A stretch of 64,000 bases of DNA from Saccostrea cucullata (lineage: Eukaryota). Both the position numbers and the translations under genes were made by a program. Positions 23,069 to 51,000 of the stretch are shown piece after piece. The DNA lies in NCBI RefSeq assembly GCF_032062105.1, contig NW_026940997.1:806001-870000 (forward strand). Direction: 5' to 3'. Position 1 is the first letter of the stretch. Every line of letters starts with the position of its first letter. Under the pieces are notes generated by a model. The model saw only the letters and a list, made by a program, of their open reading frames with translations. It was not told the DNA's origin and did not search any database.

Positions 23069-25470
23069 ATGTTAGGGCCTACTGTGACATGGGACGTCAG
23101 TTTGTATGTTCTCATCCAAAGGACTGGCCTCCATGTCCCTAAGTGGGACTAGAACCCACAATACAAGGATCAACTCCTTTCAATACTAAATTCTATCCAT
23201 ACTCAACTACATTACCTTTACTTGACTATACTGCAAGAAGAAGTGAGTGTGTTGGGGGCAACTGGCCTTTCAATGAATAGTTCTGTTTGGAAAAGAGAGG
23301 GGGAGGCAAGCTGGTCCCCCTCCCCCCAAAAATGCTGTGTGCCTGATAAGATATTCAATTTATTATCAATGTGCAGGTTGAACAAAGTCTCAATATATAA
23401 ATGGATTCTAGAAGGAATGATTCTCATATTTGGAAAATCAATTATTAGGAAATTGAATTCATGGAAAAATGTCTAATGAGTTCTTTGCATGTGGGGAGTG
23501 GCCTGGTTCAGGTAAAATTCTTAAAAATTGGGCATAGATTTGTGGTCTGTGGTCAATCTTGTTATCTGCACCCCAAGACATAATCATAAGGAAGCCTTTA
23601 AATTCATTCTCCATTTTAAGGTGTTCTTATGCTATAAGGATCTTTAAAGGTACCTTTTTTTAAAAAAAATTGCAACATGCAACTTGAATATTCTTTAAAA
23701 ATTGTGGTTTTTGGTATTGTCTTTGATTTGAGGGAGTGCACATTGGGGTATTGGGACAGATTTTATTGGAGATGATAAATTCACTTGAAGTCTACTGAAA
23801 CGTTTGGTTTCCTTTGAACCTGTTACCAGCTACCAATTTAACAGTTGATAACCATCAAGCCAGGGAAGTTGGTTCATTTGTAAAGTGTCTCTGTGGTTTA
23901 TTAAGAAATAAAACATTCGGCAGAGGATGCTAGTAACATTAAAACGTTTTATGTAAATAGTGAATCTTTTTCTCATTAGCTTTTTGATTATTGTGCCAAA
24001 CCCCCCATTACACCCTTGACTAGTTACCATAAACAAGGGGACTGGCAAAGGATTCTGTAATGTAAAGACAATTGCAGATACATGTAGTTTGAGATTGTGT
24101 TATTTATTAGTAGCTGCATGTACAAAGGAAGAGCTGCATGATTTAGAACTGTTATATTAATTATGTATTTTTCTAAATTCTGTTAGCGATATCTGATTAT
24201 CAAGAGTGTGTTTTTTTCTTTGGTAAATTAGAATGATTTCCCCAGTTACTCAGGTTGCCATATTAAAGTGCTTCCAGATTACAAGATCTGTTTGTCTGTC
24301 TGCTAATATAAGGTGCATTCAGAGAAACATACATGAATTTGTGGTCACACATGAGACTAGATTATTTATTTGCAGACCAGTATGGAGAAATTCTTGTAAA
24401 CAAAGGAATTTATAAATATAAATGATCAATGGACTTTTATGTTGCTGCCTGTTTTTATCTTAAGGGACACAACTTTATATGTGAAGAACTTGGGCTAGTT
24501 CATATACTGATAAGGAAAATTTCATAGTGTAAAGGTATGTATAGAGTATAAAAATTATACAAAGCCATCTTTTCATTTGCAAGACATTTAAATCATTTTA
24601 AAGCCATTAAAACGTTGCCATCTGACAGGTATTAATAAAGTGATTAAATTCGGCATTACCATAACAGATCATGTGTCACATTTCATATCCCCGGAAAACT
24701 GACAGACTTGGGCAGTCTCCTCTCCCCGTTACACTGACTGATCATTTATAATTATCATCGAGACTTTTTTTGCTGTGTGTTAATGAACATGGAGGGTTTT
24801 ATTAGATGCAGTAATTTCTGAAACATAAAACCATTAAATACCCTGTAAACATGGGTCATGGGAAAGGTTTTGTTATGCAGTGTTTGACACAAATCAGGGT
24901 TAAGTAATTCCGAAACATTATCCGCAAATCCTTATTTAAATATATATATAGCACTCTATCAGTTGAATTCATCAAAGCTATTGATGATTGTTGATTGAAA
25001 TTTTTTCTCATAAATCATAAAAATTTCATTATTATACCTTTACACTTAATGTTAACTTTAAATATTATGGGAGGGATAATGGAATAGATTTTACTTTAAT
25101 TGTCATAAAAGTCTGTCTTATCGGGAAGTGTATCTTTGACAGAAGATTAATTATCATTAGAATTCAAAATGGAGACCACCTATTTTGAACTATATAACTT
25201 TATCTAGTTATAGAATGCTAAAATTTAAGATTTTTCACATGTAACTTGAGAAAATAGAGAAAAATGCAAAGTAAGATTTTTTAAAAACACAACTCATAAA
25301 TAGCCATATGCTATATAACCAAGGTGTAGTCAACTTGCGTGCCAAGTTATATTGAAATCAAATCAAAACTAGGAGGAGTAGTGTTTTTTTTTATTTTTTT
25401 ATTAAATTTCTGTGAAATTCCTTAAAAACACTATTCCTCCTACAGTTTTGGCAGTATTGTAGATTCCTTA

Positions 25471-26730
25471 TTAGCTCTACTGGTCAGAGACCAGAAGAGC
25501 TTATGCGATAGTAATGCGTCCGTCGTCCGTCCGTCTGTCTGTCTGTCTGTGTGTAAACAATTTTTCAAAATGCTACTCCTCCTACAGTTTTGGTCTGATT
25601 TCAATAAAACTTGGCACACAATTAGATTACACTAAGATACATAATTCTGTGCATCGGTTTTTGATTTCGATGAATGATGTTGCCATGGTTACTAAAAATA
25701 TAAATTTCTGTGAAATTCTTTCAAAATGCTACTCTTCCTACAGTTTTGTTCGGATTTCAATATAACTTGGCAACACAAGTAGATTACACTAAGATACATA
25801 ATTCTGTGCATCGGTTTTTGATTTCGATGAACGATGTTGCCATGGTTACTAAAAATAGAAATTTCTGTGAAATTCCTTTAAAACACTACTCCTCCTACAG
25901 TTTTGGTTTGATTTCAGTATAGCTTGGCACACAAGTAGACTACACTAAGATCAGGAGGAGTGGTGTTTTTTTTTATTTTTTTATTAAATTTCTGTGAAAT
26001 TCCTTAAAAACACTACTCCTCCTACAGTTTTGGTTTGATTTCAATATAACTTGGCACACAAGTAGACTACACTAAGATGCATAACTCTGTGCATCGGTTT
26101 TTGATTTTGATTAATGATGTTGCCATGGTTACTAAAAATAGAAATTTTAGTAAAATTCTTTCAAAATGCAACACCTCTTACAGTTTTATTCCGATTTCCT
26201 ACATTTTTTGAGTTTTATTGATTTGGCACATGTATAAAGCCCTTCGGGCACACAAGTACCAACCCGTTTTACACTAAGATCAAAAAATGATACCTTATTT
26301 ATATTTACATTTGTGACTTGTTCATACTTTAAATTTTGATTGTTACTTTTAACGTGTGAAACATTATTTTTCAAACCCAATGGCATGTATGTAATCGACC
26401 CTTTATGACGTCACAGAGAAATTATGTCGAACGTTTATCCAAACGCACATCTATGACCTCTTGACCCCATACCTGTATTTATACAGTTATAAAAACGCTT
26501 GCTTTCAGCAGTGTTATATAAAGGAAAACATTTGCAAATGTAAATATTATAACTTAGCACACAAGTAGACTACACTAAGATACATAATTCTGTGCATCGG
26601 TTTTTATTTTGATGAGCTGCAAGGATCATTTTTCTATTTATTGCTGTTTTAAAGTTTCCCAACTGCTACTTTTCTCTTCCTGTGATTTAAATATAAACCA
26701 GTAGAGCTACAGTCTCAACAGAGACTTCTT
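25471..26730 (+). mobile_element. HINE (family A) with ~156-bp tandem monomers
   Basis: Subterminal IRs AGCTCTACTGGT / ACCAGTAGAGCT, (GTCC)(GTCT) microsatellite, 3' hairpin AGTCTC..GAGACT, T-rich flanks. Confidence 0.88.
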
Positions 26731-43700: not shown

Positions 43701-45250
43701 TAAAGTCTGACATGTTTATTTCCTGATCTTAAGGAAGGAATTCCCAGACTAACTTGAACTCAAAAGCTTGTGTACATGTTTATCATTGATAAAGAGTGCA
43801 TGCACCAATCCTACGTTAATTTGCATTTAGATTTCACAATTTAAACTATGCACATGTGAATTTATTTTAATTAATGAAAGACGTTTTTCTTTCATAACAT
43901 ATTCTAGTATGTACTTCATCTTTGTAGATTTCTTGCCAATGTTGATCTTTGTGTTGGTGCATTGTGGGATGGTGGCAGCAGAAATAGAGGCTGACTATAT
44001 GTGGGGGCTAATTCATCCCTCCCTGCTCAATGGAGAGGGGGGATACTATCTCACTTCTCTCAGCAGTGCTGTACTAGCCCTCAAAAACTTCCAAAATATG
44101 CAGGGAACACCCAGTGATTCTCAGCAGGTAAATGACTAATAAAGACTTTAAAATCAAAACTTAACACATGGAATGTGATATCCCTATTACAGAGTAATAT
44201 ACATAGAAATAATGTGTATCTCATTAACATGTTGAACTGTTGATTTTTTGTTACAAAACACTGACTATTTTCAGATTTAGCCAAAACTCTGGGTTATACA
44301 TGCTTTTTTCTTGTCAATAACTTTATATAAGGTTGACAAATACATGTAGCTACTCGTGTATTAGACATTTTTTTTCAATTTCTGTTGTTATTGTTTGGAT
44401 GAAGCATTGTTTCCGATAACTTCAGGTGGAGGTCCCGGCTCTTGGTGACATGGAGGGTTTTTTGAAGGTAGCCATTCCTGATGAACTGCGGGATGCGATC
44501 ATCTGGAAAACACTCCCTGTCCGACCTAACATGAATACTAAGGATGTCTGTAAGTTACAGCCAATAAAGTTCAATTAATGGACCATTGTTGTTAAAGTCC
44601 ATGGACATTATAGAAATTCTTCAGGATTTTGTGCTTATATTTTTATCTAAAAGCAGGCTTAGAAGTTCATATTTTATGTTGTTGTAGGTTCCATGATTGC
44701 TCATAAGTTCCGGATCACAAACCCCCAGGACTACGGCCTTTATCTACTGGTCCAGGGAGAAGGTACGTATAAATCGACACATGCTGAACATATAGTTATA
44801 CAGGGAAATTTATATTTCTCAAAAGGCATTGCGATTGATGAAAATACATATATTGTTTGATAGTAAGGCAACATTTGGATTATCTGAACCAAATGTCTAT
44901 TCATACACTTCCACTTTCTTGATAAACTACTCAGTTTGCTTACTTTGTTCTGTCTCATCCTATTCCACATTTTTTTTTTTTTTGCAAACCTTAACATTTT
45001 TAGTTCATATTTATTTTTAATTCTGTAAATGATTTAGATTACATGTTTATTACACTAGAGATTCTTGTGTATGATTTGTTTAAGAGTGACTGATTTTTGT
45101 TTTACAGAAACTCGTCTTGGTGACATGAATATTCCTCAGGTGATAAAATCTGAGAACAGCTCCCATGGAAAACAGCCAGTATTTGCTTACAAACGCAATG
45201 CTGCAATCATAGCCTGGCCCATGTCAGTCAAAAGGCAACAGAACTGCTGA
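28794..45250 (+). CDS. Ras and Rab interactor (RIN/Sprint family; SH2, long disordered linker, RH, VPS9, RA), about 1343 aa
   Basis: Exons 28794-28853, 32934-33031, 36782-36929, 37547-37735, 37991-38267, 38391-40478, 41232-41292, 41499-41601, 42068-42273, 42480-42555, 42850-42981, 43426-43477, 43928-44127, 44426-44549, 44688-44762, 45108-45250 = 4032 nt, phase-consistent. SH2 (ERLTKTHPIW...GTFIIRNS), VPS9 (GADDFLPML, GEGGYYLTS), RA (KTLPVRP...PQDYGLY). The first three exons are less certain. Confidence 0.9.
29126..29912 (+). mobile_element. HINE (family A), second copy, 156-bp monomers x ~4
   Basis: Same termini as 25471-26730; monomer landmarks at 29311, 29467, 29623. Confidence 0.9.
31170..31790 (+). 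mobile_element. Degenerate HINE (family B) fragment
   Basis: TTTAGCTCACCTGAGC start and diverged 166-bp-type monomers, immediately upstream of the intact copy. Confidence 0.65.
31803..32872 (+). mobile_element. HINE (family B) carrying a 166-bp Cg170/HindIII-like satellite array
   Basis: GCTCACCTGAGC / GCTCAGGTGAGC subterminal IRs, GTCY microsatellite, monomer landmarks at 32161, 32327, 32493, 32659 (period 166), 3' CCATGGGCCTCTTGTT. Confidence 0.92.
33116..33642. mobile_element. Degenerate relative of the 11892-12421 MITE
   Basis: TAGCAGCAGATCTGTA...TTCTGCAGCTA termini, similar length (527 vs 530 bp); TSD not preserved. Confidence 0.65.
35265..35720 (+). mobile_element. Degenerate HINE family A copy
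   Basis: GAAGAGCTTATGCGATAGTAATG head and decayed ATAACTTGGCACACAAG monomers. Confidence 0.65.
36991..37386. mobile_element. hAT-type MITE, second copy of the 20381 family
   Basis: TAAGGCTGGG...CCCAGCCCTA with a colinear interior; TSD degenerate. Confidence 0.8.
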
Positions 45251-46391: not shown

Positions 46392-49300
46392 TTTTAGCTC
46401 TTCTGAGCCAAAGGCTCAAAGAGCTAATGCTATGCACCCATTCTCAATATAAGGGCTCAAATAATGTCGCCTCATTTTCATTTAGAAGAAATACCACTGA
46501 TGTAATTTTTAAATCAACATGATAAATAGTCATATAACAATGAATAAGAATTCATATAATTATTGAAAGGGTAATATATCAAATATAGTACCCTATTTGA
46601 AATGTACGTTACTGTCGCCGAGGCAAATATTATGCTGAATCCCCTCTGTGTAATATATAGTTTTGATTCTCAAGTAAAAATTTTCTGATAAGTTAAACCT
46701 TGTATCATATATATTTCTTTTCATAACAATAAATACATTTTCTTTGTGATAATAAATAATTTTTATTGTGCAATGTCCCTGTCGCTTAATTCTATTTCAA
46801 CCACATTACAAGCAAACACAAAGATTATACACCTGATAGTTTTGTTCTCCTTTGTTTATTGATGGGCTAAATTTGAAATTTCAAAGGATTAATTACTCCT
46901 ACTTAGATAATGTAACATGAAATTGAACAATTTGAGCAACTTTTATAAATATGCGGAATGAAAGAAAATCGTAGAGATAAGAAAGAAATGTACGTTACCT
47001 ATATTCTTCCATTAAGAATATATATTAAGTAGAAAAAGAAACGACTCTGAATAAGCAACCCCTTGTATCCTGTAAACTGGCAAAGACGTTTTGCTTAACA
47101 CAATTAAAAATTATTTTTTACATAAAAAGTGATCATTTGAAATGTACGTGACTGAAATGTACGTTACCATGAAATTCGAATTAAGTGAATCTCGCACGAA
47201 TTTTCATGTATTCTCATACTTTCACACAATCGAATGTGTACACAAAGGAAAGTTTCAAAGGTTGGTGGTCGGCTAAATCCCAAAATTAATGAAAAGAAAC
47301 GTTTCTGCTGAGGATAAAAAATATATTAAGGTCAATTATATGTAATATAATTTTGATACCTGGTATATATTTCTGAATACGAAACCTGTATGATGCATTT
47401 CTTATGATATGCAAGTTCAACTAGTATCAATATATTGCGTGTCTAACGTACGTTTGTGGAACAGAATTGATTTTATATTTGAAATGTACGTTACGTATGG
47501 TAACGTACATTTTGCGTATTTCTAACTGACATTCTTATTTTAATTAGTCAATGAATTGCGTTTACACGAGCGAAAAAAAATTATCGTTACAATCCATTTG
47601 ACAACTGACCACATAAATCCATCTAAATGCACCCCCAATCCTCGTAAATGTGGTAGACTGTTACCATATGCTAGAAAATTTATTTGTAAGTGTCTTGTCT
47701 TATATTCATCTTTAGCAACCTTTTTGCAGTTTGTTTACTTTTTATATGCGACTTTTCGTCAATATTAATTTAATTGTTGTTGATAATTTAAAACAAGGTA
47801 TAAGCTTATAATTGGTAAAAAAAAAAACACAAAAAAGAAAAAGAAAACAAATAAACCCTGAATACAAGACGGTCACGTACATTTCAAATACTGAAAGGCA
47901 CACAATACTCAGTTTTGTTTAAATCATTTTAATTTTGGGTTATATTTTTCCAGATCTGCTGAAAAGCACGTATGTTTGTGTTTTGACAAACGATGTTGCA
48001 ACATACTAAATGAAATTGTTAACAAGACTGTCGATGGATATATTCGGAATAGATTTATGTTAAGTTTCAATGGCCAAACACGAGCATTTGTTAGATCATA
48101 GCAAAATACTGTCTCTTATTTTTTTTGTCTGTACCCTTGCACACAGGTAGAAGTAACTAGGCTACGACCGGTGTCAATTTCAGCGAAACAGCACAAAGAA
48201 TGGTAATGAACTGAGGTGGAGGGGACTCCCTAATAATATGTGAAATGAACGTTACCGAAGTGACGTGACATTCATGTAGTTGATGACAAACAACCTCGTT
48301 TGCTACATTATGATTTCTTATATTACTGCGTTAAAACGCTTTATTGAAATGATTTTTATGTCAATAATTGCTTTTTTTCAATATTTTCTTATTACTAATT
48401 TACATATTATTACAAGCTTGAAATGTACGTTACCTACTCATATTCTGAGGCAATCGTGTCTTTATAGTGGTGATTGTGACATATAACACAATGTGATTAC
48501 ATAGGGAATCTTTTTTGGAATAAACTGAAACAAAACGATGAATTTTTAGATGAATTTTAAGCTTTTTATTAAACAGAAATATATCTTGAAATGTACGTTA
48601 TATTTACGTAGTTTTCTAAATCGACATGGATATATGTTAAAAAAGACAGTAACTACAAAATAAAATTTTACTACATGTACATGTTAAGTTCCAGTATCTA
48701 TAGAAAATGACAAGATTCCAAACTGATCGCTCTAAACAAAACAGAGAGAAGAATTTCAAGCATATATTTAAAATAATGTTTTTATACATCTGGATCAAAA
48801 AGTAACCTTTGTTTTTTGAAAGGAAAAATCAAACGCACGTTCGTATGCCGAGAAAATATGTTGCTGAGAGAGTTGGTAGGATGTGCTGGTGTTAAGATGA
48901 GATATTCCAATTGTGATTTTAATGACTACATTTTTTTTGACATATCTTTTTGGACATTGAAGAAAGAGTAACGTACATTTCAAGCTACATTTCTGAATAA
49001 AATCACCCTCTACTTTACCGTCTTGTCATTATTCCGTGTATTAAAATTTGATGAAAAAAAATCTGGAAACAAAATCTTCAGATACTTTCTTTCAAAGGTA
49101 ATTGATAGAAAAATTGTTATCTTGAACTTCATTTTTTAAAAAATCAGAGAGGCATTTGTGCCCTTATATTGAGAATGGGTGTACGGCCATTTGTGCAGTG
49201 TGCGTCAACTTTTTAGAATATGGGCCATAACTCAAGAACCCCTTGGCCAATCAGTACCAAATTTGTCACAGGGTATCCTTGACCCAAGGGCTACCATTTG

Positions 49301-51000
49301 TACTAAAATAAGGGTTGGGACCCTTAAACAAGGGGAGATAATCAAGAAAACAAAACCAAAAGTACTGGTTGCTAAAAAATCTTCTTCTCCATAACTACCA
49401 GGCAGATTTTCACCAAACTTACATACAAGGATCAGGATATGTCGAAGATTAAAATTTGCACGGGGAATTACCCTGGGGCAAAGGGTGTGGTCTCAAGGTC
49501 ACTTCAAAGTTGACCTAAATTTACAATTAATACAAACGTGTATATTTTGCTTACTATAAGGACTAGGATCATCAAGTCTTGTAAGTTGATGCATCTTACG
49601 ACTTCACATCATGTTAAATCAAAAGTAGGTCACGGTGACCTACTTTTTGAATTTTGTGGGGATTTGTTTTTAAATTGATTTGAAGGCATATTTTGGACAC
49701 TTTAAGGCCTATGATCATCAAACTTTGTCAGTTGATGCATCTTGGGTCCTCAAACAATGTCAACTTAAAATTAGGTCACCGTGACCTACTTTTTAAACTT
49801 TATGACTTATCTTTTTAAAAACATTAAATCCCATTATTTCAGACACTGGGAGGTTTAGAATCATCAAATCTTGTACTTTGATGCATCTTGGGACCTTAAA
49901 ACATATTCATGAAAAAGTAGGTCACCATGACCTACTTTTTGAATTTTGTCGACATTTGTTTTCAAATTGTTTAAAATGCATATTTTGATTACCTTCAGAC
50001 CTACGATCATCAAACTTGGTCAGTAGATGCATCTTGGGTCTTTGAAAAATGTCGACCAAAATGTAGGTCACGATGACCTACTTTCGACATTTTATGGCTA
50101 TATTGAAGTATCTTAGGTATTTATTGGATTAGAATTGGCTTAGAATCATCAAACTTTGTGAGTTGATGCATCTTGGGTTTTCTGAGATTGACGACCAAAA
50201 AGTAGGTCATGGTGACCTACTTTTGACATTTTTTGGCTATTATTAAGTATCTCTGGTACTTATTGACCTAAAATCATCAAATTTTGTCAGTTGATGCTTC
50301 TTGGGTTTTTGGAGATTGTCGACCAAAAAGAAGGTCACAGTGACCTACTTTTGACATTTTATGGCTATTTTTAAGTATCTCAGGCATTTATTGGCTAAGA
50401 ATCATCGAACTTTGTCAGTTGAGGCATCTTGGGTTTTCGGAGAATGTCGACCAAAAAGTAGGTCACGATGACCTACTATTGAATATCTCAGGTACTTATT
50501 GGCTTAGAATCATCAAATTTTGTCAGTTTAGGCATTTTGGGTTTTTGGATAACATCGACCAAAAAGTAGGTCACTGTGACCTACTTTTGACATTTGATGG
50601 CTATATTTAATTATCTGGTACTAATTGGCTTAGAATCGTCAAACTTTGTCAGTTGATATAAATTTTCAGAGAATGTTGACCATAAAGTAGATCACAGTGC
50701 CCTACTTTTGAATACTTATTATAAGGCTTAGAATCATCAGTCTTTGTCAATTAATGCATCTTAAGTCATCAGAAAATTTCAATCAAAAGGTAGGTCAGGT
50801 CACTGTGACCTACTTATGGTATTTTATAATTATATTACAACTGTATAATATCTTCAGTCTTAACTGGCTAGATATTATCAAACTTTGTAAGTTGATGCAT
50901 TTTGGGTCTTATGATACTAATAGAGTTGGAGGCTTCTAATAGAAGTGATAGATTGTACAATTTATCTGAAGAGCGATTCAAGGCCCTTGGGCCTCTTGTT
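46392..51000 (+). mobile_element. HINE (family C) with 146-108-bp monomers, split by a nested TIR element
   Basis: 5' TTTTAGCTCTTCTGAGCC..GGCTCAAAGAGC; 3' TGAAGAGCGATTCAAGGCCCTTGGGCCTCTTGTT; tandem array ~49560-50900. Confidence 0.85.
46435..49181. mobile_element. 2747-bp non-autonomous DNA transposon with 28-bp CAC-initiating TIRs
   Basis: CACCCATTCTCAATATAAGGGC(T/A)CAAAT at both ends (1 mismatch); 11 internal copies of TGAAATGTACGTTAC; no transposase ORF; flanks TG / TA. Confidence 0.9.

Follow-up and report, generated by a model that had tools for sequence, protein, structure and literature searches.

A tandem array of paired AGGTCA sites in the window analyzed here, a 64,000-nucleotide stretch of the Saccostrea cucullata genome, makes up the central repeat region of a HINE, a non-autonomous Helentron, that occupies positions 46392-50999. 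We put at about one in two the probability that these pairs are a protein-binding cis element kept for the propagation of the transposon and probably read by host nuclear receptors. The strongest constraint on the pairs was found in the replicating lineage of the element, and for this reason we favor what the preliminary description of the array had offered as its alternative, namely that the palindrome is kept for the element's own replication. We refer to the HINE of the window as family A (called "family C" in that description); families B and C below are other HINEs with different ends. The features of the element are as follows.

46392 to 46434, + strand: 5' end of the family A HINE, with a T-run, the 5' subTIR (46396-46406), and an internal inverted repeat
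46435 to 49181, unstranded: non-coding transposon that lies nested in the HINE head and splits it, bounded by 28-nt terminal inverted repeats (CACCC...GGGTG)
49182 to 49567, + strand: remaining, non-array HINE head, with AGGTCA at 49496 and TGACCT at 49511 (9-nt spacer)
49568 to 50825, + strand: central array of ten monomers (146/139/128/121/108 bp), each with a 33-nt box followed by AGGTCA-nnn-TGACCT, normally 59 nt past the box start
49627 to 50811, unstranded: nine perfect IR3 sites matching the estrogen response element (ERE) consensus, at 49627, 49773, 49919, 50065, 50204, 50332, 50460, 50568, and 50797
50689: degenerate tenth copy, AGATCA-cag-TGCCCT
50965 to 50999, + strand: 3' end of the HINE, with the 3' subTIR (50965-50976), the hairpin AGGCCC-TT-GGGCCT (50981-50994), CTTGT, and then a host T

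The nine perfect palindromes described previously were present with the positions and spacers given then. Each matches the consensus ERE, AGGTCAnnnTGACCT, exactly, and 100 shuffles gave a mean of 0.07 such sites and a maximum of 1. The degenerate copy was likewise found, and the start-to-start spacings of the ten sites are 146, 146, 146, 139, 128, 128, 108, 121, and 108. Two details needed qualification. The arms AAAAGT and ACTTTT, which had been attributed to every monomer, are both perfect in only four of the ten copies (49627, 49919, 50204, and 50568). The spacers do vary as listed, but within limits: each of the nine is either CGG, CCG, or CGA or differs from one of these by a single CpG transition, and the same triplets or their CpG-decay products make up 791 of 860 spacers in other family A copies, so that spacer variation carries little information. 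Helical phasing of the 146-, 128-, and 108-bp monomer lengths was considered and dropped as too loose.

The element does not start near the array: the HINE 5' end lies at 46392 and a 2.75-kb element interrupts the head. This nested transposon (2,747 bp) is probably flanked by a 4-bp target duplication (TATG/TACG); a 16-nt motif recurs several times inside it, in both orientations, and we take its ends to be Chapaev-like. In DNA run X2, one contig joins 46434 to 49187; the contigs of four runs over the window insertion were dominated by other element copies. The subterminal inverted repeats, AGCTCTTCTGA at 46396 and TCAGAAGAGCG of other copies, match at 10 of 11 positions, and the 3' subTIR copy of the window carries one further change relative to other copies. 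As in HINEs, an inverted repeat (TTAGCTC...GAGCTAA) lies near the 5' subTIR, a palindrome stands behind the 3' subTIR (50981-50994), and the central repeats are tandem, fixed in orientation, and without coding capacity. This combination of subTIRs, inverted repeat, and hairpin is HINE anatomy according to PMC4067079 and PMC7492417; the part of PMC8268682 considered here defines end boxes only. At the insertion points, the 5' junctions were T-rich, T begins 47 of 70 of the 3' flanks, and the flanks showed no duplication by eye. In the left module, where HINEs carry a microsatellite, heads of family A hold just one to three GTGTGCG units; microsatellites are clear in families B and C.

When the animal's own genome (1.17 Gb) was searched at the DNA level and 40 of 4,066 candidates were scored, copies were 84-93% alike, and most of them share both ends, with a T-run, a subTIR, and an internal inverted repeat on the 5' side and a subTIR, a hairpin, and CTTGT on the 3' side. 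An exact 22-mer from the family A head occurs 1,253 times in the assembly. Of 80 head-anchored loci, 46 held the whole element in the stretch that was retrieved; these had a median length of 2,086 bp and 8.7 perfect sites per locus. Counts from this assembly are somewhat inflated, since a number of its contigs are duplicates or alleles of others (we dropped 9 of 107 loci as duplicates). No autonomous partner was identified by its ends, as none of 20 intact Helentron ORF loci had family A ends on both sides. We also note that at L006-L008 one family A copy sits in the T-run of another copy's palindrome right arm. Other HINE-type arrays of the window, with 156-bp monomers or 166-bp Cg170-like monomers, lie at 25468-26198, 29124-29830, 31173-32870, and from 52143 onward, and a 45-bp tandem array at 4018-4490 (10.7 copies) is open on both strands for ~157 aa.

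Conservation was assessed in 960 monomers from 98 non-duplicate loci, anchored without reference to the motif on the upstream box by a box weight matrix, which replaced a best-match anchor that missed most monomers (370 recovered). We kept 860 of the 960, dropping 100 as truncated or poorly matching, and left out two tail clusters. Monomer types of family A are position-specific. Across the 12 type consensuses, variable columns numbered 0 of 12 in the half-sites, 4 of 12 in the arms, 17 of 33 in the box, 19 of 20 in the linker, and three of three in the spacer; the Fisher p value for half-sites was 0.001 against the box and 0.09 against the arms. The monomers of families B and C align gap-free to family A at 41-60% identity. 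In 15 consensuses from the three HINE families, 11 of 12 half-site columns were invariant compared with 1 of 12 in the arms and 10 of 33 in the box. Half-sites are therefore more conserved than the linker, the box, and, across families, the arms, as opposed to the equal conservation that, in the preliminary description, would have counted against its reading. Families B and C were first located through the AGGTCA motif itself; a motif-blind search anchored on the box then gave 30 matches, of which 23 had AGGTC(A/G)nnnTGACCT at an unchanged offset, and in the other seven the pair was disrupted by indels or substitutions. The distance from box to site was 59 nt in 757 of 842 cases despite monomers of mainly 128, 146, or 108 bp, and the spacer was 3 nt long in 715 of 719 sites.

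Not every HINE needs the pair, since both half-sites are degraded in the final monomer of family B and the Cg170-type monomer consensus of the window has no AGGTCA IR3 pair. In more distant monomers, whose homology is less certain (~33-46% identity in a forced alignment), AGGTCA occurs either as IR1 together with direct repeats or in direct repeats alone, at roughly the same distance from the monomer start as the family A sites. Half-sites are invariant across the 12 types, but inserted copies do lose sites. In motif-blind monomers the perfect site was retained in 465 of 588 and lost in 123 (21%), so single copies are not strictly preserved.

This loss is nevertheless slower than that of neighboring sequence. 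Inserted copies lose sites at ~0.6 of the neighboring rate: relative to type-invariant columns, rare half-site substitutions in dispersed copies stood at a ratio of 0.58-0.66 (34-42% lower, p 0.0002-0.009). Measured against all other monomer sites the ratio was 0.66 (84 vs 128), or 0.69 once alleles of other types were removed (p=0.014), and against the element head it was 0.91 (singletons; 49 vs 53.6) and 0.79; we prefer the within-monomer comparison because sample sizes differ for the head calibration. Ten same-site pairs, in which one locus was seen twice and differences postdate insertion, leaned the same way, with 8 of 1,356 half-site positions changed versus 135 of 12,907 elsewhere (p=0.12). 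The deficit fits filtering through many source copies, and equally weak host selection or lower mutability.

Whole-assembly counts, in which each pattern was compared with its reverse as control, place the estrogen-type arrangement among several. IR3 sites numbered 18,516 (control 108); family A flanks accompany 11,454 of these, and both flank bases are missing from 1,547. IR0-2 numbered 7,604 (control 101; mostly IR1 among the matches listed), IR4-6 908 (control 106), and DR0-2 91,587 (control 466). The glucocorticoid (GRE) palindrome, taken as a comparison motif, showed no excess in the same assembly (109 vs 129 in the control). Paired AGGTCA is thus enriched in many geometries, IR3 is a minority, and the estrogen geometry is not special. 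The single AGGTCA hexamer is modestly enriched and the pairs strongly; in a hexamer-versus-reverse screen of 157 kb chosen without the motif, AGGTCA occurred 134 times against 76 and fell outside the top 20. The proposal in the preliminary description that a mobile repeat may spread clustered receptor sites is supported in part: the carrier is a HINE and it does spread the family-flanked ERE sequences counted above, but the ER-specific form of the proposal is weakened because related monomers use AGGTCA, and in larger numbers, as IR1 and as direct repeats. One such 146-bp HINE monomer, at L061:1420-1968 (G000:C11), has thousands of copies and carries AGGTCA-A-TGACCT (IR1) followed by direct TGACCT repeats; we take this IR1 to have the geometry of ecdysone/FXR elements. 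Separately, a different repeat family at ~1490-1520 of L063 and L066 carries AGGTCA-G-AGGTCA-ATACG-TGACCT (DR1 plus IR5).

Two readings would explain the conservation of the pairs without a receptor. In the first, the palindrome would act as a single-strand structure, a hairpin or cruciform, in rolling-circle copying or array rearrangement, and its likeness to an ERE would be chance. Family A sites do form hairpins of -6 to -12 kcal/mol whose loop is 3 nt long, families B, C, and D retain 6-7-bp stems at about -5 kcal/mol, the change from 128 to 108 bp begins directly behind the right arm, and for the conserved 12-nt palindrome in each core repeat of DTC84 of Donax a role as rearrangement hotspot has been proposed (PMC3879986). 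However, symmetric double changes were found in only 2 of 172 altered half-site pairs and 5 of 291 altered arm pairs, so neither shows the compensatory change expected of a hairpin; the arms, which form half of the stem, diverge until only two to four of six positions pair in relatives; and direct-repeat families retain the hexamer with folds of 0 to -3.3 kcal/mol, that is, without a hairpin. We consider a structural role rather unlikely, and because sequence and position are kept where pairing is lost, we infer sequence-specific protein binding in preference to a hairpin. In the second reading, the ancestral monomer would have had the motif by chance, and amplification, conversion, self-templated repair, or low mutability would have retained it. 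Copy-number effects would account for the genome counts, 21% of monomers are broken, and the same-site deficit points to something acting on each copy by itself, which could be mutational. Neutral retention nonetheless seems distinctly unlikely, given that between families the neighboring columns diverged to 41-60% identity but 11 of 12 half-site columns did not change, that conversion should shield box columns equally yet the box varies more, and that self-repair predicts symmetric changes half the time when almost none were seen.

Host genes offer a further reading, in which the arrays serve as enhancers for the ligand-independent ER and wire neighboring genes to it. The consensus EREs are perfect, an ER gene is present, and inserted copies show residual half-site conservation. 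Published work reports that snail ER binds GGTCAnnnTGACC, the consensus ERE, without ligand while snail ERR apparently did not (PMC3778743), that oyster ER is constitutive (PMC3886901), and that human ER has a preference for C(A/T)G spacers (PMC2853111); CTG and CAG together are 292 of 860 family A spacers. Yet CTG and CAG are equally plain CpG-decay products, IR3 is a minority arrangement of AGGTCA, and the C. gigas HINE arrays, in the sequence displayed, lack three exact IR3 variants while DR0 is common. The window copy, moreover, is not at a promoter: two genes converge on it, each probably with its 3' end facing the element. These ends rest on ORFs and weak Pfam matches: on the + strand a SH2-VPS9 (RIN-like) gene with its probable last exon at 45059-45250, and on the - strand a scramblase-like gene of three exons (Pfam E 1e-4 to 8e-3, below cut-off). 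We regard host use of the arrays as improbable, and return to the reading in which the pairs serve the transposon itself.

Candidate readers of the pairs are present in the host. Searching the genome for zf-C4 domains gave 80 matches, and 30 loci were read. An ER gene, with exons encoding CEGCKA (the ER P-box) and the D-box PATNT, lies on G000:C449, and its best solved matches are AncSR1 and ER. ERR (CEACKA) was also among the 30 loci, and other domains there look to us like NR5A, RXR, HNF4, and COUP-TF. Three ERR-like first-finger exons (CEACKA) on G000:C12249 and C21470 (L157, L158, L160) represent either allelic contigs or a duplication. Another candidate reader is the transposase: RepHel itself may recognize AGGTCA, although the one Helentron protein scanned had OTU, Rep, PIF1, and endonuclease domains and no nuclear-receptor-type finger (zf-C4).

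Helentrons bearing such proteins are common, with at least 150 Helitron-domain matches in the genome and many open frames of 2,600-2,850 aa. We surveyed the 6 kb upstream of 39 intact Helentron frames (20 plus 19; L229-L248 and L269-L288, with L287 skipped and L274 probably a duplicate of L244). These leaders held 129 HINE end motifs, every one on the transposase strand (~0.6 per kb), compared with 6 and 6 by strand (0.06 per kb) in 20 control stretches from Helentron-bearing contigs. Family A was found in 11 of 39 leaders and three or more IR3 sites in 12 of 39, versus 0 of 20 controls. This stacking is not specific to the motif, as the commonest HINEs in leaders are of the Cg170 type, whose consensus has no IR3. 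In 16 of 20 fetched Helentron loci, a T-rich stretch that ends in AG, much like a splice acceptor, precedes the first ATG; since the ORFs mostly start directly behind this AG, the HINE stack may occupy a 5' intron. Comparing Helentron flanks in pairs did not define the true Helentron ends. Directly behind the ORF, two related Helentrons (L250 and L253, on C2992 and C12771; 89% aa) have in common a 3' array with a period of ~431 bp that contains AGGTCA clusters.

If the pairs are kept for propagation, each monomer would offer a putative protein dock that aids copying of the element. A host nuclear receptor might open chromatin over the element or, alternatively, drive transposase transcription where arrays lie in Helentron leaders; copies with intact sites would then leave more daughters. 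Perfect ERE geometry would be one family's version of the motif and effects on host genes a by-product. Weighing against this reading, each element has 10-13 redundant sites, so that the loss of a single one may matter little. A bolder extension, which we regard as doubtful, is that bivalve Helentrons are nuclear-receptor parasites: AGGTCA clusters of ER, EcR/FXR, and RXR/GCNF type would dock host receptors, each HINE family tuned to a different one, and the arrays, stacked one way in transposase 5' leaders where the constitutive mollusc ER drives transposase, would ride along.

Published systems share parts of this picture. Cg_HINE of Crassostrea gigas, especially CL6 (PMC7492417), resembles family A in its subTIRs, 5' inverted repeat, 3' palindrome, apparently T-rich target, and fixed-orientation ~146-bp monomers rich in AGGTCA/TGACCT, but CL6 carries AGGTCA as direct and everted repeats. 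Arrays here also differ from Cg_HINE in having 10-15 monomers and, in family A, a microsatellite that is at most vestigial. Three exact IR3 variants (the only three IR3 spacers searched) and IR1 had no matches in the sequence displayed in the HINE supplement of PMC7492417, and its text, as far as available, does not link the AGGTCA motif to nuclear receptors. The nearest structural precedent is DTC84 of Donax trunculus (PMC3879986), which likewise has ordered, position-specific core-repeat variants with a conserved palindrome in each; its palindrome, TTGTCCGGACAA, is spacerless and is not a known receptor site, and the authors state that experimental evidence of proteins binding such conserved boxes is missing. 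Helitrons of Caenorhabditis (PMC6927752) supply most genomic copies of a transcription-factor site (HSE) in dense clusters, which also lie upstream of the Rep-helicase gene, comparable to the Helentron leaders here; by the same route as proposed there, leader arrays could allow receptor sites to raise transposase output. The factor differs, and binding and induction were demonstrated for HSEs, whereas family A is known from sequence. Alu repeats carry functional EREs (PMC2853111) and mouse SINE B1 carries Nr5a2 motifs (bioRxiv 10.1101/2022.05.17.492379), which are also nuclear-receptor sites spread by mobile elements, although these elements are retrotransposons with mostly single imperfect sites as opposed to tandem perfect arrays. 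Our search of the openly accessible literature text found no paper that connects bivalve HINEs with AGGTCA or with nuclear receptors, and none that describes HINEs stacked on one strand in the leaders of Helentrons.

These observations bear on both host and transposon biology. Few targets of the ligand-independent mollusc ER are known, and as most perfect EREs of this genome come from one transposon family, motif scans for oyster ER targets would mostly report transposons. If Helentrons were receptor parasites, their more than 100,000 sites would in addition sequester host receptors or divert them. That HINEs stack on one strand in the leaders of Helentrons is relevant to how they are related to their autonomous partners. 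The conserved boxes of bivalve HINEs and satellites have long been assumed to bind protein, with no candidate, and AGGTCA supplies a named and testable one.
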